From UHGV virus genome UHGV-0195847: a stretch of DNA of 39,909 bases. One strand, written 5' to 3'. Below, piece by piece: positions 2,003-25,164 of the stretch. The number at the start of each line of letters is the position of its first letter. Within the stretch, counting starts at the first letter, position 1. The notes below the pieces were generated by a model. The model searched no databases, had not been told where the DNA came from, and saw nothing but the letters and a program-made list of their open reading frames with translations. Source of the DNA: a virus. Made by a program: the position numbers and the translations under genes.

Positions 2003-3478
2003 TTAACGAGTCAAATAGTTATATTCCACACAACCTTCGCCTGGATTATATCGGAATTCCACAACCGGATGCCCGAAATCCAGTTGTTCGTAATCATTTG
2101 TGAAAAACAAGTCTTTGTCTGTATAAAGTTTTGCATAGTACTGCATATATTCTTCAGAATTATTAATACAATGGTATTCAGGCATATAAATGTTAGTCCC
2201 ATCATCGAAATTTTGTATCGCACCAGAGCTCATCAGATTGTTGAAGGCAATGTATCGTTCTGTCTGTACCTTTAGCATATTTCCAATTCCCGAGTTAAAC
2301 GCTCCGGTAGCCAACGAAATGGCAAATACGCAACTGCATAAGAACATTCGGATTGTTCTTTTATAATGAAAAAGAGAACATATCCAAACTGCACATAATA
2401 CACCTGCCAATACCATGAAAAACCAGGAGTAAAAGCTTGTTAAATATCCGAAGGTCTTTTCATTACACCAATTGATATATTTGCTGGTAACACACAATGG
2501 TAAATTGGGTAAGAACATACCCATAATACTAATGATTATAATCTTTAAATATTTACCTTTCCAAATAATTCTTTTGATAAAATACCCAAAAAGAAAAGTG
2601 GTTAATCCTGCGATTAAATATATATCATAGGAAGCTTGTAGGAAGAAAGTGATGAGTTCACCATTGTATATGGTATAGAGCATCGGTATCAAGGGAAATG
2701 CTGCGATAGAATACATAAAAAGACACCAAATGCTTCCTACAGGGTCGCCAAAGAAAAAAGAAGCACCATCATAAGTGATAGGATATATTTTCCTCCAAGC
2801 AAAATAGACAAATAAAAATACTAGAACCACACTGATGTGATAGGACATAGAGAGTAATGCTCTCTTCATATTTTTTTCATAAAAAAGGCTTATTATCACA
2901 AACAGTAAAATGTATGCAACAGCACTTTCATAAATTATTATACTGAACATATAGAATATGCTGCTCCATAATAACTTTTTCTTACATTGAGGTTTTTGTA
3001 GATATTGCAAATAAAAATAAATAGAGCATAGAATTAATCCAATAATAATCTGGTGCGAAAAAACATATGCAAGAAAGAGGCTGTGCCAATTAGATATAAC
3101 AGCTAATCCCCAAAAAAGTGTTATGACAGTCTTTGCAATGTCTTTATCGATGAAATCACTAACAAGTCGATACAATACATATACATCAAACAGTATGGTA
3201 CCATAAGAAAACAATTTATAAATCCACAGCTGGTCTGCCATCATAGGAATACCTAACATCAGGGTACTCATGAACTGTGTAATTCTTCCCGACTTTGTAA
3301 GATGGACCGCCCAACGAAACAAATCACCATGACGAACAATTGTATAGGTTAAAATATCATCATCTACAGCAAAATAGACAGGATAGATTTTGATGAGAAA
3401 AAGCGTCATCAGGCCCCCTATTAAAAACCATTCCAAAAATGTGGTCTTTTTAATATCAATGTTTTTATTGCTGTTCAA
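2003..3478 (-). CDS. Polytopic membrane protein, GT-C-fold glycosyltransferase-like (moron)
   Basis: 491 aa with at least 10 hydrophobic helices. Acidic DDD motif in first predicted loop (YFAVDDDILTY), as in PMT/ArnT-type GT-C enzymes. AT-rich (~30% GC). TTG start preceded by AGGAGG. Confidence 0.55.
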   Translation of the reverse strand: MNSNKNIDIKKTTFLEWFLIGGLMTLFLIKIYPVYFAVDDDILTYTIVRHGDLFRWAVHLTKSGRITQFMSTLMLGIPMMADQLWIYKLFSYGTILFDVYVLYRLVSDFIDKDIAKTVITLFWGLAVISNWHSLFLAYVFSHQIIIGLILCSIYFYLQYLQKPQCKKKLLWSSIFYMFSIIIYESAVAYILLFVIISLFYEKNMKRALLSMSYHISVVLVFLFVYFAWRKIYPITYDGASFFFGDPVGSIWCLFMYSIAAFPLIPMLYTIYNGELITFFLQASYDIYLIAGLTTFLFGYFIKRIIWKGKYLKIIIISIMGMFLPNLPLCVTSKYINWCNEKTFGYLTSFYSWFFMVLAGVLCAVWICSLFHYKRTIRMFLCSCVFAISLATGAFNSGIGNMLKVQTERYIAFNNLMSSGAIQNFDDGTNIYMPEYHCINNSEEYMQYYAKLYTDKDLFFTNDYEQLDFGHPVVEFRYNPGEGCVEYNYLTR

Positions 3479-3953
3479 CTTTAACCTCCTAATAACTCTG
3501 TCAAAATAGTATATGCATTTATTTCTTGACGCCTGTTAGTTAGTTTACCACATTCTTGATTGGTTGGCTAGATATTACAAGGGTTCATAATTTTAGTAAC
3601 AGTTTTGGTCAATGTTTTTATTATCATTGAGTGGTACTGGATGAATCGGGCCCGCCTATTTGGTAGGCAGTGACTACAATTTGCCTACCCTGTACAAGTT
3701 TTGGTAAATGATAGTATAGGTTTGTGTGTGCCAATATGTGAAAGTATTTCTCTTTATTCCCTTTAAATAAAGGTTGTTTTATGGTACTATGTGCAAAAAT
3801 ATGTTAGTATGTTTTTATGTGTTAACAAACGGGGAATGTCGAAACCGTCGTGGAACTATCACGCAAAATCAAGGATTGACGGACTATCTGACATCTTTAT
3901 TGGTTGCCCTGCCTACCTCTTGCCTACGCTTTTTTGAGTGGTAGGCAAGGTTG
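3479..3953. other. attP-like non-coding region with integrase arm-type repeats
   Basis: GGTAGGCA at 3662-3669 and 3940-3947. TGCCTACC at 3682-3689 and 3910-3917. TGCCTAC at 3921-3927. Inverted pairs flank short spacers. Located between the moron and the integrase 3' end. Confidence 0.5.
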
Positions 3954-5159
3954 CTATGATATAGCATCTGCCAGGATTACAATGGCATCGTTCTGCATTT
4001 TTTCCGTGTTAAACACATAACGGTCCATGGTGGTCTTGATGTCCTTGTGGCCCAGACGCTCCATGACGGTCTTGGGCTGGGCGCCATTTTCCGCCAACAA
4101 CGTGCCGTGAGTATGACGTAGGCAATGACTGTGGAACAGAGGATTTCCCAATTCTTCATGAATGACCTTGGCACAGTACTTGAAAGAGTATGGCGTCAAC
4201 AGCTCGCCGTTTTCTTTGGCGCTTATTGGCATTATTTCCTTGCCAACAATTTTGACGTTGGAAGGAGCCTGAAAGATTAAGCCATCGTCCATTTGATACG
4301 TCTTTGTAAAGTACTGGCCGTACCGGAGCATGTTCTTTTTGCGGTTATGGATTTCTGTTTTCAGAACTTTTTCATATTCCGGGAGTATTTTTATAGTCCG
4401 GACAGAATCATATTTTGGCGGCCGGTAATACCACTTTCCGCCCTCATTGGCAAGCTGGTGCTGGATGGTTATGGTGTGGCGCTCGAAATCTACGTCATGC
4501 AGCAAGTCAATGCCGTAAGCCTCTCCCAGGCGCGTGCCACAATGGTATCCGGTCATGAGCGGTATGTAAAAATTACTGTCCGGCCCAAAACGCTCAATGA
4601 TGGCCGCAAAGTCCTCTTTGACACAGATATATTCTGTGTGTGCCTTGGCCTCATCAGACATAACTATCTTCGGTATTCTGGCATAATCACAGGGGTTGTA
4701 CTTGATGTATTTACAGGGATATACCGCATATCCCAGGGCACCAGACAGGCAGGATAAGGTATTTTTAACCATGCTCCTGGAATAGCCTTGACGCTTCATT
4801 CCGTCAATCCATTTTTGGATAACATCTGTCTCCAATGATGCCAGCCGGTATTTTCCGAATGCCGGTTTTAGATGCACACGGATTTTCTTTTCATAATCCT
4901 TTTGTGTATTGTAGCTGAGATTGGTTTTGACATAATTATCATACCAATAATCCAGATAATCAGATACGCTGATGTCCGAAGGGGTAAACCTGCGGCCAGC
5001 AGAGTCATATTCCGCCTTAGCTTGGGTGCCGGCAGTGATGGCCTCGGCCTTGGTACGGTATCCTCCCTGACTGATTGGGTTGCGCTTACCGTTGATTTTA
5101 GCCCCTTCAAAGGACCATTCCCAAGTGGAGCCGCGTTTCCTTGTGCGTAGTTGTCCCAT
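3954..5159 (-). CDS. int: Tyrosine integrase (phage integrase family with N-terminal arm-binding domain)
   Basis: 401 aa. C-terminal HCLRHTHGT...LGH..TT.DRY catalytic signature (R, HxxR, Y). N-terminal WEWSFEG...GGYRTKAEA arm-type DNA-binding domain. RBS AAGGAGGAA. Confidence 0.9.
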   Translation of the reverse strand: MGQLRTRKRGSTWEWSFEGAKINGKRNPISQGGYRTKAEAITAGTQAKAEYDSAGRRFTPSDISVSDYLDYWYDNYVKTNLSYNTQKDYEKKIRVHLKPAFGKYRLASLETDVIQKWIDGMKRQGYSRSMVKNTLSCLSGALGYAVYPCKYIKYNPCDYARIPKIVMSDEAKAHTEYICVKEDFAAIIERFGPDSNFYIPLMTGYHCGTRLGEAYGIDLLHDVDFERHTITIQHQLANEGGKWYYRPPKYDSVRTIKILPEYEKVLKTEIHNRKKNMLRYGQYFTKTYQMDDGLIFQAPSNVKIVGKEIMPISAKENGELLTPYSFKYCAKVIHEELGNPLFHSHCLRHTHGTLLAENGAQPKTVMERLGHKDIKTTMDRYVFNTEKMQNDAIVILADAIS

Positions 5160-5179
5160 ATACCATTCCTCCTTGTGCT

Positions 5180-5195
5180 GTTGCGATATCGCAAC
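5180..5195. repeat. Perfect 16-bp palindrome GTTGCGATATCGCAAC, copy 2
   Basis: Read directly. On the int strand it lies 5 nt upstream of the int RBS and just after a weak hairpin/T-run. Confidence 0.95.
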
Positions 5196-5348
5196 AAAAT
5201 TTGGGTATAAAAAATACGCCCTCTTGCCAGGACGCTCCAGGAATGATATAATCAGATTGTTCAGAACTGATGATATCTTCCGGAGCAGTCCGGCAAGAGA
5301 AATCTATGTGAAAAGCTTCTGTGTTACCAGCACAGGGGCTTTTTCATA

Positions 5349-6089
5349 TTATGAATTTAATAACTGTTTTTTCTTAGTTTCAAACTCTTCTTCGGATATG
5401 GCTCCCATATCCAATAATTCTTTCAGAGCTTTAATTCCCTTGAGGGCATCTGTGGTATTTTTAGATACTTCGGCAACTGATTGTTCTTCTTTGATTTGGA
5501 AACACCTTATTTGAGCATCTATTTCAGTAGTGCAGGCTATGGAAATAGGAAATGTCATTCCATCATCAATGCGCCGAAGTTTCAAAACCGCGGTTCCGGC
5601 TTGCTCAATATGCTGTGTCATTTGCCTGGAGTTAGATGACATATTTCCCTGTGTAGTAGATTTACCTTTACTTCCGGCACCGATTGCTGCCCCTACTGCG
5701 GTTCCGATTCCAGGCATCAATAAAGTACCTACGACAGCCCCCGCTGTCATTTTTCCGGCCTTTCCTTTTTTGACTGTCTGACTGCTACTGATTCCGGTGG
5801 TTTGTGTATTCGTCATGGAGCCATAAAGAGGTCCGTCCCAAGAATAATCTAGCAATTCATAAAGTCTATTTTCATCAACTCCAAAATAAACCAAGCCGTC
5901 TTCCTGGCGTTGTCGGATGGTGCAGGATCCGTTCATGCCAGCAGGCCCATTTTTAACAGTGATGAACGCGCTGACCTGGCTTTGTCTTCTGGTAGCCAGC
6001 TGTCTTTCTGAATCCTTCTTTGCTAATTCATTCTTTACCAAACCCGTTGCACCATCGGCGGCGCTTTTCATCAAATCTTTAAGTCCCAT
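5349..6089 (-). CDS. Glycine-zipper membrane segment plus C-terminal SHOCT-domain protein
   Basis: C-terminus ALKGIKALKELLDMGAISEEEFETKKKQLL matches the SHOCT pattern. Central AGAVVGTLLMPGIGTAVGAAIGAG glycine zipper. RBS GAGGAGG. Co-oriented with repressor/ImmA/int. Confidence 0.65.
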   Translation of the reverse strand: MGLKDLMKSAADGATGLVKNELAKKDSERQLATRRQSQVSAFITVKNGPAGMNGSCTIRQRQEDGLVYFGVDENRLYELLDYSWDGPLYGSMTNTQTTGISSSQTVKKGKAGKMTAGAVVGTLLMPGIGTAVGAAIGAGSKGKSTTQGNMSSNSRQMTQHIEQAGTAVLKLRRIDDGMTFPISIACTTEIDAQIRCFQIKEEQSVAEVSKNTTDALKGIKALKELLDMGAISEEEFETKKKQLLNS

Positions 6090-6116
6090 AACGAAACCTC
6101 CTCAATGTATATACTA

Positions 6117-6827
6117 TTACAATGACTGTGCCCTCAAAGAATCCAGAATTATTCTCGTTGGTGACAGCAAATCATTAAATGGATATGGTTCCTGACTGGC
6201 CTTAGCATCGCATATAGGACAGATACAGTCACCAGGTCGGTTATAAAAAGTTCGTCCACAGTAGAAACATTCGGTCTCAGCACAAATAAACTTTTTAGAC
6301 TCGGATTTATAAAAGTAGCTATACATTTCCCAATCAACCGGATACATTTTATGTGTGGCTCTGCGATACCATCTGCGGTAAGCGGCAAAGGCATTATGAG
6401 CAGCTTCGTCCGACAATCCGAAATGTCTATGCACATCCCAAGCGCTTTCACAATGGCAATAATGGATTACCATACTGGGAGCCAATACGTAGCTTGCAAA
6501 ACAATTGGCCTCTTTCTCATAATAGTCTGCCTTGTACGGATGCTCAAGCACTATATGCCCCAACTCATGGGCCAGTGAGAAGATAATCCTATCTAATGGC
6601 TTTTCCTCATTGTAAGCAACTGTCCTGCTAAATGGTTCAGTGTATGCCTCGTCAGAACAGGAAGCACATAATTCATATACTTCTGGATTCTTTTCTTTCA
6701 ATTCGCTGTATGTATAGACATGATATCCATACTTTTTTATGGCTGAAATACAGTCAAATGGAAATTTCTTAAATTCACAAAAGATATATGTTTCTAGTAC
6801 TTTTTTCAGTATAAAATCGTGATTCAA
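6117..6827 (-). CDS. ImmA/IrrE-family zinc metallopeptidase with C-terminal Cys4 extension
   Basis: HELGHIVLEH HExxH motif. Immediately downstream of the XRE repressor with a TTG start 6 nt after the repressor stop (ImmR/ImmA-like arrangement). C-terminal CxxC...CxxC. Confidence 0.75.
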   Translation of the reverse strand: MNHDFILKKVLETYIFCEFKKFPFDCISAIKKYGYHVYTYSELKEKNPEVYELCASCSDEAYTEPFSRTVAYNEEKPLDRIIFSLAHELGHIVLEHPYKADYYEKEANCFASYVLAPSMVIHYCHCESAWDVHRHFGLSDEAAHNAFAAYRRWYRRATHKMYPVDWEMYSYFYKSESKKFICAETECFYCGRTFYNRPGDCICPICDAKASQEPYPFNDLLSPTRIILDSLRAQSL

Positions 6828-18987: not shown

Positions 18988-19019
18988 GATTTCTGGGAGA
19001 ACCGGAGAAAGGAGCCTGG

Positions 19020-19379
19020 ATGGAAAGAGATTTTGAAAAAGACATCATAGAGCTGGATGCTGCAATAAAGTCCAACGCGGAACGGGATAATACTTTTACG
19101 TTGTCGGTACTGCAACGGGTGAAGGCAATCATGCTGCAACAGAAAGAAAAGCTGAAAGCCTATGAGGATACCGGCCTGACGCCAGGAGAAGTCCAGTATT
19201 TAAAAGACAAAAGCGAGCCGAGAATGGTGGTGTGGACACCAGCATATCAATCATATTATTCAGCTGGTGATGAAGCAGAGTGCCTCTGTCCGGTATGTGA
19301 TTCAGATGTGGTTGAGGATGATGATTATTTCTGTCCAACTTGCGGCCAGGCATTGAAATATCATGATGAACCAAACTGA
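19020..19379 (+). CDS. Hypothetical protein with C-terminal zinc ribbon
   Basis: CPVCDS...CPTCGQ. RBS AAAGGAG. Confidence 0.5.
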   Translation: MERDFEKDIIELDAAIKSNAERDNTFTLSVLQRVKAIMLQQKEKLKAYEDTGLTPGEVQYLKDKSEPRMVVWTPAYQSYYSAGDEAECLCPVCDSDVVEDDDYFCPTCGQALKYHDEPN

Positions 19380-19407
19380 AACTTTGATACGAAAGGAGAA
19401 TCAGGAG

Positions 19408-19548
19408 ATGTGCAAGGAGTGTATTAAAAAGGTACTTGAATGGTACAGCTTTGGCATCATCGTAGGAGCAGGATTTTATATAGGACTGAATCTTGCAGTA
19501 CAGCTCCTAAAGGTGGTAACAGACGTAATGAGGCAGTGGTGTCTATGA
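19408..19548 (+). CDS. Small membrane protein (46 aa)
   Basis: ATG 19408 after GAAAGGAGAATCAGGAG. One hydrophobic helix. Confidence 0.35.
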   Translation: MCKECIKKVLEWYSFGIIVGAGFYIGLNLAVQLLKVVTDVMRQWCL

Positions 19549-19754
19549 GAAAGAAAGGCAGTAAGCAGTCCAAGGTTAGCCGCATCGACCGCAGCAAGGC
19601 CCTGGCCGCTCAGGCCGACGAGGCCATCAAGGAGCGCATCCGGACGGCGCCGGCCTATATGTACACCAGCCTGTGCCCGGTTCCGGAGCTGCGGGAGCCG
19701 CCGAAGGGAGTGATTGTACGTGGCATCAAGACCCGTGTACTACGACCTGTATGA
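19545..19754 (+). CDS. Hypothetical basic protein
   Basis: ATGA overlap with previous stop (coupled). 69 aa. Confidence 0.35.
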   Translation: MRKKGSKQSKVSRIDRSKALAAQADEAIKERIRTAPAYMYTSLCPVPELREPPKGVIVRGIKTRVLRPV

Positions 19755-20013
19755 TTGTGGCCAATACGACGGCCGGTACAGAGCAGCGGAACTGATGGTA
19801 ATGCTGGGCATCCGGCACCGGCAGCAGATAGAGCATTACAGTGACGTGGGTATCCTGTACCAAAAGCGATATACCTTTGTCAGGGCGGAGGATGGGAACG
19901 CGCCAGAACTGGCCGATGAATGGGACAGGGTGACGCAAGTATTGAAGGGATGCGGGCACGATTTGGGCAGGATACCGATTGTGGTATCTAGGGATAAGCG
20001 GAAGAGGAGGTGA
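19720..20013 (+). CDS. Hypothetical protein (possibly one gene with 19545..19754 via frameshift)
   Basis: Overlaps previous ORF in another frame. Candidate GTG 19720 after AAGGGAG. Stop overlaps the ATG of the late activator (TGATG). Confidence 0.3.
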   Translation: MASRPVYYDLYDCGQYDGRYRAAELMVMLGIRHRQQIEHYSDVGILYQKRYTFVRAEDGNAPELADEWDRVTQVLKGCGHDLGRIPIVVSRDKRKRR

Positions 20014-20471
20014 TGCCGGTGGATAAGGAGGTGCTGATACAGTATTGCGAGATGAAAGAGGAGATAAAGGACATAAGGCGACGGATTCAGAAGCTGGACA
20101 GGTTCCTGGAGGAGCCGCACCAGGTATCAGATACGGTGAAGGGTACAAGGCGGGATGGGACGATAGGAAGCATTAAGGTCACGGGATACCCCGTGCCGGA
20201 GCATTACCGGAAGCAGCGGCTGAGGGAGCGGTACAGGCAGCTTCTGGCGCGTAAGGAGGCGGAACTGCTGGAGCTGACCTGCCAGGCGGAGGAATATATA
20301 CAGGGCATACCAAAGAGCGAGGTGCGGACCATGTTCCGTCTGTATTACATAGATGGCCTGCCTTGGTGGAAGGTGGCACAGGCCATGAACCGGATGTTTC
20401 CTAAGAGGCGGGTTAAGTTTACGGAGGACAGCTGTTGGCAGCGAAATAAAAGATTTTTTGAGGAAAATTGA
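20013..20471 (+). CDS. Putative late-gene transcriptional activator, sigma-70 region-4-like (DUF1492/ArpU/RinA-like)
   Basis: C-terminus GIPKSEVRTMFRLYYIDGLPWWKVAQAMN resembles a sigma region-4 HTH. Position upstream of the packaging genes. Confidence 0.5.
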   Translation: MPVDKEVLIQYCEMKEEIKDIRRRIQKLDRFLEEPHQVSDTVKGTRRDGTIGSIKVTGYPVPEHYRKQRLRERYRQLLARKEAELLELTCQAEEYIQGIPKSEVRTMFRLYYIDGLPWWKVAQAMNRMFPKRRVKFTEDSCWQRNKRFFEEN

Positions 20472-20732
20472 AAATGTCGGTTCATGTTGGGATGAAAAGT
20501 GCTAATATGCTATCATGCGGAAGCCAGAGGGCGGAAGCACCCTCCCCATTTAAGCAACGGCCGCCAGGTATCACACCCTGGTGGCTGACTAACCGGTATT
20601 GTGTAATCTCTCATAAGACAGACCTGTACATTAACGGACAATGCCGCAGGGTACACAACCGGTGAGGTATCTGGTTTTATCCCCCATGACGTTTTCCAGA
20701 TACATAGACAGATTTTCTCCTTTGGATGAGTC

Positions 20733-20765
20733 CCTGCCAGTGCGGCGGGGGCTTTTCTTTTGTCA
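20733..20765 (+). terminator. Terminator-like hairpin upstream of moron
   Basis: CCCTGCC-AGTGC-GGCGGGG (one G.U) followed by GCTTTTCTTTTG. Confidence 0.45.
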
Positions 20766-20806
20766 GATTTTGGTGTATGATAAAAAGAACTAAGGAGGGA
20801 AACAAG

Positions 20807-21493
20807 GTGGATCAGGAAAATGATGTGAGGAGTGTTCTAATTGAAAAAAAATATGATGCGCGTAAATGGAAAAAAATTATGGACACTACACAAAGTAATT
20901 ATGCGAATATGATAAAACGTTTAGATAGGAGGAACAAGGTATCAAATTATGTATTAATTTACTATAGTATATTTTTAATTGCCATAACATTAACTGGGAA
21001 GTATTTTCCAAAATATTTCAGCACTATTTTAGGGGAATATTTTGGTATTTTACTTTCAATAATTATGCTGGCATATTCTCTTGTAAATAACAGTGCAAAT
21101 TATTCTGTTAGAATTTCAAAAATTGAAGAAGCATTAAATAAATTAAAGACAATAAAAAGAGAAGTTAATGATGAGAATATAGATACATATAAAGAAAAAT
21201 ATTATGCTATAACAGATACTACCGAGCGTCGGGAGGATGTTGATTTTTTTGTTACTGTAAAACATTTATGCAAAGAGTATAATATAAACGTGATAACAAA
21301 AAAATCTAAAGATAAAGATCATATAGGGCTTGATGAACAAGAAAAAGTCGTAAACGATTATGTTAGCGAAATTAATATTTACTTGGAAGAAAGTAAAATT
21401 ATTTTTGAATACCTTTGGTATGGGTTATTGTTTTTTACTCCAATGCTAATTTTTGCTTTATGTTTTATTGTAAAAATACGTGGAGGTGTATAA
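20807..21493 (+). CDS. AT-rich moron: 3-TM membrane protein with SLATT-like N-terminal 2TM topology (candidate defence/abortive-infection effector)
   Basis: 228 aa. GTG start after AAGGAGGG. Helices YVLIYYSIFLIAITLTG, ILGEYFGILLSIIMLAYSLV, and C-terminal YGLLFFTPMLIFALCFIV. ~27% GC versus ~50% flanks. TGTATGAT extended -10 at 20774-20781. Own terminator downstream. Confidence 0.55.
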   Translation: MDQENDVRSVLIEKKYDARKWKKIMDTTQSNYANMIKRLDRRNKVSNYVLIYYSIFLIAITLTGKYFPKYFSTILGEYFGILLSIIMLAYSLVNNSANYSVRISKIEEALNKLKTIKREVNDENIDTYKEKYYAITDTTERREDVDFFVTVKHLCKEYNINVITKKSKDKDHIGLDEQEKVVNDYVSEINIYLEESKIIFEYLWYGLLFFTPMLIFALCFIVKIRGGV

Positions 21494-21596
21494 AATTACT
21501 TCGGGGTGGAACGACTCTATTACTGAAATAAGCAAAAGAAAAAGACAGCCTATTTGGCTACCTCATCCCTGCAAAACTCATACAGCGTAATACCTA

Positions 21597-21630
21597 GGCA
21601 CCTGTCAATCCAACAGGTGCTATTTTATTG
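21597..21630 (+). terminator. Rho-independent terminator after moron, abutting terS RBS
   Basis: GCACCTGT-CAATCCA-ACAGGTGC 8-bp stem followed by TATTTTATT. Confidence 0.7.
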
Positions 21631-21650
21631 CATGAAAGTAGGGGAGTCAG

Positions 21651-22229
21651 ATGGCATTAACGCCAAAACAGAAGATATTTGCAGATGAATACCTAATTGA
21701 CCTTAATGCCACCAGGGCTTACAAGGTGGCGTATCCGAGCTGCAAAAAGGATGATACGGCAGCAGTCAACGGAAGCAGGATGCTAAGAAATGCTAAGGTT
21801 GCGGAATATATACAAGAGCGCATGAAAGAACGGGAGAAGCGTACTGAGATTACGCAGGACTGGGTATTGGAGGAACTGCGCAAGATTGCCAGCGTAAACG
21901 GAACCGATTTTGCACAGGTTGTGCGAGAGCCGGTCATCCGTAATAACTCTTATGTGGTGGATCCCGATACTGGCCAGGTGCGGACAAGGGATGTGGTCAG
22001 GATAATCCCGACAGCGGAACTGACAGAAGAAAAACGGGCGGCTATCTCCGCAATCAAGGAAACAAAGTTTGGAATAAATGTGGAAACCTATGACAGGTTA
22101 AGAGCCTTGGAGCTCCTGGGACGCCATCTGGGGATGTTTAAGGACAAGATGGAGCTGTCTGGTGGCCTGGATACCGAAAAGACCAAGCTGGATGACTTGC
22201 TCCAGCAGATGCGCGGTGGTGGCCAATGA
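21651..22229 (+). CDS. terS: Terminase small subunit (Terminase_2 family)
   Basis: LTPKQKIFADEYLIDLNATRAY... matches the conserved N-terminus of terminase small subunits. Precedes TerL. Confidence 0.85.
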   Translation: MALTPKQKIFADEYLIDLNATRAYKVAYPSCKKDDTAAVNGSRMLRNAKVAEYIQERMKEREKRTEITQDWVLEELRKIASVNGTDFAQVVREPVIRNNSYVVDPDTGQVRTRDVVRIIPTAELTEEKRAAISAIKETKFGINVETYDRLRALELLGRHLGMFKDKMELSGGLDTEKTKLDDLLQQMRGGGQ

Positions 22230-23575
22230 GTGCAGAGAGATTATTACTATCAGATAAGTACAAGGCGTTCCTGCATTGTGATGCGCCGGTGGAGTTCCTG
22301 GAGGGTACCACGGCAGCCGGAAAGACCACGGTAGGCCTGTTCAAGTTCATGCTCAAAGTGGCGGAGTCACCCAAAAAGCTTCACATCCTGGCAGCGGATG
22401 ACACCGGCGCCGCAGAGAAAAATATCATCCAGAAGGACCTGGGTATCCTGGATGACTTCGGCGTACTGGTGGAGTACAAAGGTAACGGCGGAGGTGGTTA
22501 TAACATGCCCCACATCCTCTTCCACACATCCGGCGGCGATAAGATAATCTTTGTTGTCGGCTATGGCAACAAGCGCAAGTGGAAGGATGCCTTGGGCGGC
22601 CAGTACGGATGCCTGTACATTGATGAGATTAACACGGCCGACATAGAGTTTGTGCGTGAGGCCGCCATGCGGAGTGATTACCTGATGGCCACGCTCAATC
22701 CGGATGACCCTGGCCTGGATGTCTACAAGGAGTATATCAACTGTTCCAGGCCGCTGCCGGAATGGGCGGATGAGACGCCAAAAGAGATAATGGACGAATT
22801 ACAGGAAGAACCAAAACCCGGTTGGGTACATTGGTTCTTTTCTTTTGTCCATAACCTGGGCCTGAGCAAGGAAAAACTGGAACAGATAATGACCAATACC
22901 CCGAAAGGGACGAAAATCTGGAAGAATAAGATTCAGGGACTGCGTGGTAAGGCAACCGGACTGATATTCTCCAACTTTGAGCGGTCTAAGCATGTCATCA
23001 CAGTCCAGCAGGCCAAGGCACTGAAATTCAAAAAGTTCACGGCGGCTTTGGACACATCCTACTCTTCCAAGTCCCCGGATACCATAGCCATGATATTCCA
23101 GGGAATCACGGAGGACAGGAAGCTTATCACCCTGGCCGAAAAAGTCTATAACAATTCCAAGCTTGACATCCCCCTGGCGCCCAGTGACACAGCAGTCAAG
23201 TTTGTGGCCTTCCTGGAACAGTGTCGGAAGGATTGGGGATTTGTCAAGGATGTGTACATAGACAATGCGGACCAGGCGACCATCACGGAGTTGCGCAAGT
23301 ACAAGCGGCTTAAAGGCTGCCTGCATAATTTTTATGATTCCTACAAACGGCCAGAGATTTTGGACCGTATCAACCTACAGCTGGGCTGGATACAGCAGGG
23401 ATGTTACCTGGTGGTGGATACCTGTGCGGAGCACCTGTCCGAGTTAGACCGGTACTCGTGGGATGACGAGAAGGATAAGCCAGAGGACAGGAACGACCAT
23501 ACCATTAATGCCAATCAGTATGCGTGGATACCATACCGGAACCTGATTGGATTTGAGGAGGCTGAGAAGAAATGA
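22226..23575 (+). CDS. terL: Terminase large subunit, PBSX/XtmB family
   Basis: Walker A GTTAAGKT. 449 aa. Nuclease-domain acidic residues. Followed by portal. Confidence 0.9.
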   Translation: MSAERLLLSDKYKAFLHCDAPVEFLEGTTAAGKTTVGLFKFMLKVAESPKKLHILAADDTGAAEKNIIQKDLGILDDFGVLVEYKGNGGGGYNMPHILFHTSGGDKIIFVVGYGNKRKWKDALGGQYGCLYIDEINTADIEFVREAAMRSDYLMATLNPDDPGLDVYKEYINCSRPLPEWADETPKEIMDELQEEPKPGWVHWFFSFVHNLGLSKEKLEQIMTNTPKGTKIWKNKIQGLRGKATGLIFSNFERSKHVITVQQAKALKFKKFTAALDTSYSSKSPDTIAMIFQGITEDRKLITLAEKVYNNSKLDIPLAPSDTAVKFVAFLEQCRKDWGFVKDVYIDNADQATITELRKYKRLKGCLHNFYDSYKRPEILDRINLQLGWIQQGCYLVVDTCAEHLSELDRYSWDDEKDKPEDRNDHTINANQYAWIPYRNLIGFEEAEKK

Positions 23576-25164
23576 GGTGGCTGAATAACATGAATGAGAC
23601 AATCAAGCGGGGCATTTGTACCTGGCTGAATGTGGTGCCGGCCAGCGGGAACTGCATTCAGATTAACGAGATACTGGACTTTGAGGCTAACGCCATCCGG
23701 AACCGCATATGGTACCGTGGCGATGGTAACGAGCTGGAGCAGATGTACCAGCAGGCCCCGGAGTATGCGGATAAATATAAGTTCTGGGCCAGCAAATGCA
23801 CCCCGGGTATGGAGATGCGCAAGATACATACCGGTCTGCCTGGGCTGATTATCCGCATACTCTCAGGCATTGTCCTGGATGATATGAATGACTTTGACTT
23901 TGCGGATAATGACCGGCAGCGGCAGCTGTGGGAGGACATTGCAAAAGATAATAAGTTCACTCGTAAAATGGAGAAGGCTTTGAAGGAGGTCCTGTACATC
24001 GGGGATGGAGCCTTTAAGGTCACGATTGATACGACTGTCAGCGAGTACCCTATTCTTGAATGGTATCCAGGGGAGCGAATTGAGATTGTCCGGAACCGGG
24101 ACCGGGTGAAGGAAGTTGTGTTTAAGACTCCATATAAGGCGAACCGCGGGAAGTACATCCTGTATGAGCATTATGGATACGGCTACATCCATAATGAGTT
24201 GTATAAGGGCGACGTGCCAGTACCCCTCAATGCCATCGACGACACCAAGGGCATCAAGGACACGAAGTTTGATGATAATGTCATCCTGGCAGTACCCTTG
24301 CAGGTGTATGAGTCCACCAAATATGAAGGACGCGGCGGCAGCATCTTTGATGGTAAGCTGGACAGCTTTGACGCCTTTGACGAGGCCTGGTCCCAGTGGA
24401 TGGATGCCCTGAGGGCTGGAAGGGCCAAGACATACATACCTGAGTGCCTGATACCGCACGACCCAGCGACCGGGCAGATTATTCGCCCCAATTCTTTTGA
24501 TAATCAGTATTTTGCCTCTGATAACGACATGTCAGAAAGTGCGGATAACAAGGTCAACGTGGTGCAGCCGGCAATACCCCATGACAGTTATCTTGCATCT
24601 TACTGTACAGCTCTGGACCTTTGTCTGCAGGGGGTCATAAGTCCCAGCACTTTGGGCATTGATGTCAAGAAGCTGGATAATGCTGAGGCTCAGCGTGAGA
24701 AAGAAAAAGCTACCCTGTATACCCGGAACGCCATCGTGGAGGCGCTGCAGGAAACCCTGCCTGAGCTGGTGGAGGCAACCATCAACGCATATAACTTCCT
24801 GCATGGAAAGGCTGCGGAGGAGGTTAAGGTGGACATCCCATTTGGTGAGTATGCAAACCCATCCTTTGAGAGTCAGGTGGAGACTTTGGCCAAGGCCCGG
24901 CCCGGCGTCCCCATGATGAGCATTGAGGCCCAGGTAGAAGAGCTGTATGGGGACAGCAAGGATGATGCATGGAAACAAGAGGAGATAGCGCGGCTGAAGG
25001 CAGAGCAGGGCATTGCGGAAGTGGAGGAACCCGGAATCAATGAGGCTGCCGGCGGTTTCCAACTGAACATGGAGGGAGGAAAGGCAGATGAAGGTCAAGG
25101 TAATGAACCGTCTGTACCAGATGAACCAGAAGGAGTACCAGGGGCTGCTGCAGGTGGCAAGTGA
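23572..25164 (+). CDS. Portal protein (SPP1 gp6-like)
   Basis: 530 aa. Immediately after TerL. Gly/acidic C-terminal tail. Confidence 0.8.
   Translation: MRWLNNMNETIKRGICTWLNVVPASGNCIQINEILDFEANAIRNRIWYRGDGNELEQMYQQAPEYADKYKFWASKCTPGMEMRKIHTGLPGLIIRILSGIVLDDMNDFDFADNDRQRQLWEDIAKDNKFTRKMEKALKEVLYIGDGAFKVTIDTTVSEYPILEWYPGERIEIVRNRDRVKEVVFKTPYKANRGKYILYEHYGYGYIHNELYKGDVPVPLNAIDDTKGIKDTKFDDNVILAVPLQVYESTKYEGRGGSIFDGKLDSFDAFDEAWSQWMDALRAGRAKTYIPECLIPHDPATGQIIRPNSFDNQYFASDNDMSESADNKVNVVQPAIPHDSYLASYCTALDLCLQGVISPSTLGIDVKKLDNAEAQREKEKATLYTRNAIVEALQETLPELVEATINAYNFLHGKAAEEVKVDIPFGEYANPSFESQVETLAKARPGVPMMSIEAQVEELYGDSKDDAWKQEEIARLKAEQGIAEVEEPGINEAAGGFQLNMEGGKADEGQGNEPSVPDEPEGVPGAAAGGK

Follow-up and report, generated by a model that had tools for sequence, protein, structure and literature searches.

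An orphan SLATT_5 gene in a mobile terminator-to-terminator cassette ahead of terS in a temperate Clostridia-type phage

The window analysed here is the whole 39,909-nucleotide (nt) stretch of the virus genome UHGV-0195847, a prophage with integrase, replication, packaging, head and tail genes and a holin. In front of its small terminase gene, terS, lies a moron cassette that moves from terminator to terminator, carries a single, effector-only SLATT_5 gene and occupies a hotspot of a temperate Clostridia-type phage. A sequence-only reading had singled out this region (20766-21630) as a self-contained AT-rich moron encoding a SLATT-like protein with three transmembrane (TM) segments, and had offered a defence or exclusion gene or a timing device for packaging as its role. 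The moron is recognised by its terminators, by a conserved -10 module, by a guanine-plus-cytosine (GC) content of 27% against 48% and by its absence from 69 relatives; its promoter is predicted.

An orphan member of the SLATT_5 family

Judged by its profile matches, the protein is a member of the SLATT_5 family and does not merely resemble one. It scores 49.7 bits against Pfam PF18160 (SLATT_5, cut-off 29.5), with positions 13-191 of the 192 in the profile covered, and 81.6 bits against NCBIfam NF033631 (SLATT_5, cut-off 60). Three PADLOC models for SLATT associated with reverse transcriptase (RT), named RTasSLATT, also match, the best with an E value of 1.7e-18. These matches bear out the earlier label of SLATT-like. 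Homologues are named 'SLATT domain-containing protein' by NCBI.

The predicted architecture agrees with the one first read from the letters, both in hydropathy and in an AlphaFold2 (AF2) model. The basic N-terminus holds 12 lysine and arginine residues in 44 amino acids (aa). Three hydrophobic TM segments follow, two of them close together (residues 45-63 and about 71-93) and the third at about 203-225; TM2 and TM3 are separated by about 105 aa of charged, helical sequence. The AF2 model, built with 43 homologues, is all-helical with a mean predicted local distance difference test score (pLDDT) of 85.8, and its helices 18-66 and 73-97, at pLDDT above 90, lie over the two-TM hairpin. Hairpin residues Y52, Y53, S54, L62 and F67 are invariant and common to RT-linked relatives. 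The predicted cytoplasmic domain carries the invariant motif TDxTExRxDxDFF (E140, R142, D146, F147). The ExRxDxDF part of this motif is followed by an insertion specific to the clade, about 25-30 aa long (about residues 155-185). A total of 26 residues are invariant in the alignment of the 43 clade members.

The gene stands alone, as had been noticed before: no RT, SMODS, SLOG or TIR was found by Pfam and PADLOC among the 50 open reading frames (ORFs) of the window. The adjoining SMODS, SLOG, TIR or RT signal gene that marks the SLATT superfamily is thus lacking here. Likewise, neither an RT nor a recurrent partner was seen beside clade members in more than 25 genomic contexts. The search returned 80 homologues at E ≤ 0.001, all of them SLATT_5, with 37-99% identity over the aligned full-length members. 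An exhaustive HMMER search with the clade profile against 1.84 billion cluster representatives gave only 320 matches at E ≤ 1e-3, of which 70 reach E ≤ 1e-30. The family is therefore small, and these roughly 70 representatives are taken to belong mostly to the orphan clade. The gene recurs in about 13 different phage backbones, either immediately ahead of the packaging genes or at most 1-2 small ORFs away from them; these packaging genes are of the Terminase_2, _3, _4, _5, _6N or T7 type. The exception is L107 (3965-4642), where the homologue is found between terL and the portal gene. Other copies reside in chromosomal islands, with transposases, an integrase, an Mrr-type nuclease and DUF6119 as neighbours. 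The ratio of nonsynonymous to synonymous substitution rates (dN/dS) is 0.21 against the 91%-identical copy of L001 and 0.05-0.23 against more distant copies, for which dS is saturated. By this measure the gene is under purifying selection and is a functional, not a degraded, copy.

Two homologues depart from this pattern. In L096 (Lachnospiraceae) the SLATT homologue (4962-5618) overlaps by 4 nt the stop codon of a gene for a 968-aa protein (2059-4965) that has no Pfam match; none of the other contexts inspected shows a partner that might be coupled. In L104 (719-1502) the homologue is split into two ORFs of 198 and 65 aa, the probable cause being a frameshift in this copy or an error in sequencing.

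The proteins that stand just outside the clade are linked to reverse transcriptases. The three next-nearest relatives were examined (P0152, P0155 and P0164, 25-34% identity), and each starts 8-17 nt behind an RVT_1 gene. They thereby show the RT-SLATT order that has been described for UG17/DRT10 (PMC9226505; PMC12632851; bioRxiv 10.64898/2026.04.29.721553). Since these three relatives are RT-coupled, the orphan clade is, on sequence grounds, an effector-only relative of the SLATT proteins of DRT10. In DRT10, SLATT is needed for defence, and a role as toxic membrane effectors has been proposed for SLATT proteins (PMC12632851; bioRxiv 10.64898/2026.04.29.721553; PMC9226505) under the control of complementary DNA (cDNA) (bioRxiv 10.64898/2026.04.29.721553; PMC12632851). 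The window protein shares with the DRT10 SLATT_5 proteins the same Pfam and NCBIfam families above their cut-offs and the succession of two-TM hairpin, cytoplasmic helical domain and C-terminal TM segment. Residues R38, Y52, Y53, S54, L62, F67, Y99, R102, K114, E140, D146 and P212 are invariant in orphan and RT-linked proteins alike, E140 and D146 being those of the ExRxDxDF motif. However, the orphan clade has 25-30 aa more than the RT-linked forms after this motif, and about 10 aa are missing earlier in the sequence.

The genetic setting differs too. Whereas DRT10 consists of a non-coding RNA (ncRNA), SLATT and RT, no RT is present in the window or beside any clade member, and the cassette is a single-gene moron in which the gene is followed by a terminator and then by terS. 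Nor would an ncRNA as long as that of DRT10, about 137 nt, fit in: the cassette offers 62 nt in its 5′ part, and the 3′ untranslated region (UTR) of 103 nt, which is weakly structured (z -1.95 including the terminator), is not conserved in the 91%-identical copy of L001. No DRT10 ncRNA was found beside the gene and Rfam gave no match, the presence of a DRT10 ncRNA model in Rfam not having been checked. The leader upstream of the cassette was considered as a DRT10-type ncRNA and ruled out, as it belongs to the phage backbone.

SLATT proteins are also known paired with TIR in Firmicute phages and with CD-NTase in type I cyclic-oligonucleotide-based antiphage signalling systems (CBASS) (PMC9503650; PMC11381338). 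These are, like the window protein, phage- or plasmid-borne two-TM SLATT proteins, for which control of membrane permeability is predicted (PMC9503650; PMC11381338). However, they form two-gene units with the signal-producing enzyme adjoining, while the window gene has no partner, and at least one of them, that of CBASS, is of a different SLATT subfamily (PF18186). A likeness to SLATT-family effectors of abortive-infection and CBASS-like systems had been noted at the outset; the nearest sensor-linked relatives are RT-coupled, as in DRT10, and not CBASS-like. Elsewhere in the window (5349-6827, minus strand), a Peptidase_M78 gene (ImmA/IrrE-like) and the neighbouring helix-turn-helix (HTH) gene match PADLOC capP/capH, with E values of 5.6e-09 and 2.4e-07. 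Because the window has no CD-NTase, the M78/HTH pair is most likely an ordinary prophage repressor/antirepressor and not a CBASS regulator.

The cassette, its mobility and the cargo slot

A single ORF is found within 20766-21630, in a frame that is open from 20726 to 21493. Public gene callers start the protein at an in-frame ATG at 20777, which yields 238 aa (P0001); this ATG has no ribosome-binding site (RBS) and falls within the -10 element. In the alignment of 43 homologues the N-termini are short and variable, which fits the GTG start preceded by AGGAGG. Both this start and the low GC content were correctly read at the outset, with 26.8% for the coding sequence, 30.0% for the unit 20745-21638 and 48.3% for the whole window. 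The terminators announced on both sides of the gene were also found, each with its T-run.

The 5′ part of the cassette contains a portable junction module, CTTTTCTTTTGTCAGATTTTGGTGTATGAT. With up to 6 substitutions, this module precedes unrelated AT-rich ORFs of 72, 272, 189, 136, 136, 248, 128, 138 and 188 aa besides the SLATT gene, and it is conserved before about 10 different types of AT-rich cargo ORF in other phages; no ORF was called behind the copy in L075. Many other cargo genes of the same slot have a perfect TGnTATAAT 30-38 nt upstream of their start codon. Conservation in front of so many cargoes suggests that the cassette promoter is functional. What had been termed an extended -10 is confirmed as a TATGAT with TG within a conserved module, but the TG directly adjoins the hexamer, one base off the canonical TGnTATAAT spacing.

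The unit 20745-21638 is 98.55% identical over 898 nt (blastn) to sequences in L002, L003 and L004. These belong to a different phage, with Terminase_4/TerL_ATPase packaging genes and different early genes, and the flanks are unrelated. Such identity amid unrelated flanks implies that the unit moves as a terminator-to-terminator cassette. The left break lies in the 3′ half of the stem of the upstream terminator, which travels with the cassette from 20745, the position where identity with L002-L004 begins. The right break lies in the T-run of the cassette's own terminator, which is the right limit of identity with L002. A repeat search on the cassette revealed no terminal direct or inverted repeats; with a single ORF and no such repeats, a transposon or insertion sequence was rejected. 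The identical protein P0009 recurs in three phages whose packaging modules all differ, and L001 has two cargo genes in a row, both of them preceded by the terminator-promoter module. This module and the T-runs may be the anchors at which recombination exchanges cassettes. Among GenBank phages, megablast of 19000-23600 gave no match.

The 3′ UTR shows two further features. A terminator-like hairpin with a T-run is present on the minus strand at 21542-21564, and the 63 nt that surround it (21526-21588) show 79% identity to the region behind another cargo gene, of 226 aa, in L024 and L028.

The variability of the slot was assessed with the activator protein encoded upstream of it as an anchor. 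The same activator (63-99% identity) is encoded by 69 phages of IMG/VR, and the cassette is present in 0/69, including phages whose terL is 85-94% identical. Enough downstream sequence was available for 65 of the 69. No AT-rich cargo occurs in 23/65, and in several of these (e.g. L032, L038, L059) terS comes directly behind the leader terminator; the insertion polymorphism expected of a moron is thereby observed. The other 42/65 carry different AT-rich ORFs (26-39% GC) that form 43 sequence clusters. Empty sites together with about 43 alternative cargo clusters identify the slot as a hypervariable hotspot. Pfam recognised only DUF3825, DUF6731, AAA_31/CbiA, DUF4062, NACHT and a tail-collar domain among the cargo, which is otherwise almost entirely unannotated.

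A second SLATT-like orphan of 188 aa is found behind the same junction module in L115, L118, L120, L121 and L124 (IMG/VR). It matches the window protein with a phmmer E value of 3.9e-22, and in L121 it follows the same leader and is itself followed by terS and terL. Orphan SLATT genes are therefore recurrent cargo at this site.

A different shared promoter/5′-UTR block, TGTGATATAATTAAGAAAAACGTCGAAtGGGGGA, lies about 40 nt before the first cargo ORF in L014, L019, L031, L033, L049, L070, L071 and L080. The first ORFs behind it differ (280-660 aa) and are often followed by a second one of about 200 aa. A further family of exchangeable cassettes thus seems to share the hotspot.

The slot recalls the antiviral hotspots of P2-like phages and P4-like satellites, where a fixed position holds alternative, mostly AT-rich cargo that differs between close relatives (Rousset et al. 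2022, PMC9122126). Here, by contrast, the carriers are temperate siphophage-like genomes of the gut Clostridia type, the slot extends from the leader terminator to terS, several cargoes share a 30-nt terminator-promoter junction module, and any defence function of the cargo is putative.

Flanking backbone and late transcription

The cassette separates a regulator gene and its leader from the packaging genes (Table 1). The leader opens with a conserved promoter-like element, TTGGGA-18-TGcTATCAT, at 20487-20516 (AAAGTGCTAATATGCTATCAT). The 250 nt that follow (20517-20766, terminator included) are strongly structured, with a minimum free energy of -93.4 kcal/mol and a z score of -4.1. The first 120-270 nt of the leader are conserved in most relatives irrespective of what comes behind. 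Rfam returned no match to the leader at the gathering threshold over the window, and only chance-level matches at E ≤ 10 over 20300-21700. Insert-free relatives (e.g. L032, L059) have the same '...ttttctcctttggat..gtccctgc..gcgggggcttttcttttg' directly upstream of the RBS of terS. The upstream terminator is therefore an element of the phage backbone. The combination of a structured leader and a strong terminator before terS suggests control of the packaging operon by antitermination or attenuation.

Table 1. Coordinates of the cassette, the encoded protein and the flanking backbone features
Feature	Position	Strand	Details and basis
Mobile cassette	20745..21638	+	terminator 3′ half, T-run, promoter, RBS, SLATT_5 gene, 3′ UTR, own terminator
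Portable junction module, 30 nt	20752..20781	+	CTTTTCTTTTGTCAGATTTTGGTGTATGAT; holds -10 TATGAT (20776-20781) with adjoining TG (20774-20775)
RBS AGGAGG	20794-20799	+	7 nt upstream of GTG; read from sequence; same in L001 and L002
Coding sequence of orphan SLATT_5 protein, 228 aa	20807..21493	+	GTG start, TAA stop; Pfam, NCBIfam and PADLOC matches
Two-TM hairpin (SLATT core)	20939..21085	+	TM1 45-63, external loop of 7-13 residues, TM2 about 71-93; hydropathy
Predicted cytoplasmic helical domain, residues 96-199	21092..21403	+	43-member alignment; alignment with RT-linked SLATT_5
C-terminal TM helix, about 203-225	21413..21481	+	hydropathy; AF2 helix 191-224; P212 invariant
Cassette's own intrinsic terminator	21597..21631	+	stem 21597-21621, then T-run; -14.2 kcal/mol, z -3.3
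Transcription-regulator-like protein, 153 aa (late-activator type); last early-region gene	20010..20471	+	phrog_36 'transcriptional regulator', E 1.1e-15
Backbone leader	20472..20727	+	promoter-like element, then strongly structured untranslated RNA
Backbone intrinsic terminator	20728..20762	+	stem 20728-20754, then T-run; -22.9 kcal/mol, z -4.0; left hotspot border
terS, small terminase	21651..22229	+	Pfam Terminase_2, E 6.2e-37; PHROG phrog_51, E 5e-48
terL	start 22226		

The start codon of terS comes only 28 nt after the cassette terminator. This leaves terS no room for a promoter of its own, so that late transcripts must enter from upstream and cross the cassette. They probably start at the 20487-20516 site and cross both terminators. 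The description of the moron as self-contained therefore holds for lysogenic expression only; its upstream terminator is supplied by the backbone and late transcripts would traverse it.

Two observations concern the surroundings of the slot. Many related phages have tRNA-like sequences in the leader or beside the cargo slot, and in several of these the anticodon loop is CAT (Met type). They were recognised by eye in the leader of L017, L027, L032, L059, L048 and L066, downstream of the SLATT gene in L005-L008 and upstream of it in L001. ARAGORN detected no tRNA in the window, where a hairpin that is not a tRNA occupies the corresponding position of the leader. At the end of the prophage, a 491-aa ORF of 34% GC without Pfam or PADLOC match (2003-3478, minus strand) adjoins the integrase gene (3954-5159, minus strand) and is a candidate for a second AT-rich cargo.

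Proposed role and competing explanations

The role of SLATT in DRT10, the moron architecture and the defence-island-like neighbours of the chromosomal copies lead us to propose that the gene is expressed in the lysogen and mediates abortive infection or exclusion by membrane permeabilisation, a complete statement to which we give about an even chance. The context favours the defence or exclusion cargo first offered as a role for the moron. In the lysogen, the gene would be transcribed from its own TG-adjacent -10 promoter, insulated by two terminators. The protein would insert N-in and stay closed, its helical domain of about 105 aa lying in the cytoplasm between the two-TM hairpin and a C-terminal TM anchor. 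Upon superinfection, a phage-derived cue would act on the cytoplasmic domain with its invariant ExRxDxDFF motif; a phage protein could provide it, or else a nucleic acid, as the role proposed for cDNA in DRT10 suggests. The SLATT_5 protein would then oligomerise and permeabilise or depolarise the membrane, and the incoming phage would be aborted or excluded to the benefit of the prophage. During the late phase of the phage itself, transcripts bound for terS would also cross the gene. Classical prophage morons and membrane proteins for exclusion or abortive infection, such as lambda RexB, which needs RexA, and the Sie-type proteins, offer a comparison. The window gene resembles them as a single small membrane protein with an apparent promoter and terminator of its own, deviant composition and insertion in a late operon, but has no sequence relationship to them.

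Several points weigh against this proposal. An unregulated pore former would be toxic, which calls for some control step, and no such step could be recognised; to our knowledge, a sensing mechanism has been established for none of the SLATT proteins. A Foldseek comparison of the AF2 model with the PDB returned generic long-helix proteins only (E ≥ 0.45). No -35 element was found for the cassette promoter, a generic sigma-70 scan did not list the site, and the activity of this promoter is read from sequence conservation. Although insulated, the cassette would lie inside the late transcription unit, which leaves room for a role in the lytic cycle. Finally, PADLOC recognised none of 42 hotspot cargo representatives at 1e-5 (0/42), and the label of defence hotspot is drawn from analogy and a few domains.

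The proposal could be carried further. The cassette may be a complete one-gene immune system in which the ExRxDxDFF domain directly senses a phage product, e.g. single-stranded DNA or replication intermediates, that replaces the self-made cDNA proposed to act on SLATT in DRT10, and then opens a pore; we put this forward tentatively, as a possibility on the unlikely side. Alternatively, the orphan SLATT_5 protein might be a spare effector that uses in trans the sensor of the host or of another element (a UG17-type RT with its ncRNA, a TIR or a CD-NTase) and so widens or backs up that system. SLATT proteins have been described as accessory or replacement effectors that are often exchanged between systems (PMC9226505), the residues common to RT-linked SLATT_5 are kept, including ExRxDxDF, and UG17-C systems are largely restricted to Bacillota according to the literature. 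However, phages with the cassette range from 28% to 50% GC, which suggests many hosts, and the chromosomal islands show no recurrent neighbour. Promiscuous pairing is made less likely by the tight co-evolution reported for RT and SLATT in DRT10 (PMC12632851), and the clade differs from the RT-linked forms by 25-30 inserted aa of its own and by the lack of about 10 aa. On balance we find a role in trans improbable. The same retention of the effector core, with a modified cytoplasmic domain, could also serve counter-defence, the phage protein co-assembling with the SLATT of a host DRT10-type system, or competing for its ligand, so as to block the pore and protect the phage instead of the host. 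Its location on a phage, where late-operon transcripts cross it and terS has no separate promoter, would suit such a decoy. Yet clade members also occur outside phages, in chromosomal islands with nucleases and transposases, the moron architecture is common to many cargo genes and fits prophage expression, late expression would come too late against an abortive-infection system, and the decoy has no known precedent. We therefore rate it as quite improbable.

A role in the life cycle of the phage, as a holin- or antiholin-like protein or a timer of lysis or packaging expressed with the late genes, would accord with the small size of the protein, its several TM segments and its place at the start of the late operon. 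The search for holin or structural homology gave no family match, the best being a weak one to the holin family phrog_1296 (PHROG, E 0.071). The window has its own Phage_holin_4_1 gene, and the SLATT_5 gene lies outside the lysis module, before terS. It is absent from all 69 relatives that share activator and leader, even those with 85-94% identical terL, the same cassette is found in phages with unrelated packaging modules, and homologues exist outside phages. The holin and packaging-timer readings were rejected on these grounds; the timing device first entertained is unlikely in view of the 69 phages with the same activator that do without the gene, and a life-cycle role in general appears very unlikely. 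Least credible of all, to the point that we scarcely entertain it, is a decaying DRT10 remnant that has lost its RT and has no present function. The RT coupling of the three nearest outside relatives examined and the split copy of L104 would agree with decay. Against it stand a dN/dS of about 0.2, the 26 invariant residues, the roughly 70 representatives at E ≤ 1e-30, the recurrence of the gene alone in about 13 phage backbones, and the intact promoter, RBS and terminator.

The SLATT_5 family, the TIR and SLATT pairs of phages and the RT and SLATT systems were already known. In the literature searched, we found no description of an RT-less SLATT_5 clade as a single-gene cassette before terS, of this hotspot or of its junction module. 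How SLATT is switched on has been called a central open question for DRT10 (bioRxiv 10.64898/2026.04.29.721553). The clade described here is without RT and ncRNA, yet it is under purifying selection and has spread between unrelated phages. Having shed both components while remaining selected and spreading, it offers a one-gene test case, which either works alone or would reveal a partner in trans. The slot adds about 43 unannotated AT-rich cargo clusters in 65 phages, which can be mined as candidates for new prophage defence or exclusion genes. If the reading as a one-gene immune system is correct, the cassette would be a minimal natural system for the gating of SLATT effectors, and the slot between leader terminator and terS in gut Clostridia phages would be a large reservoir of unknown defence genes, swapped by means of the junction module.

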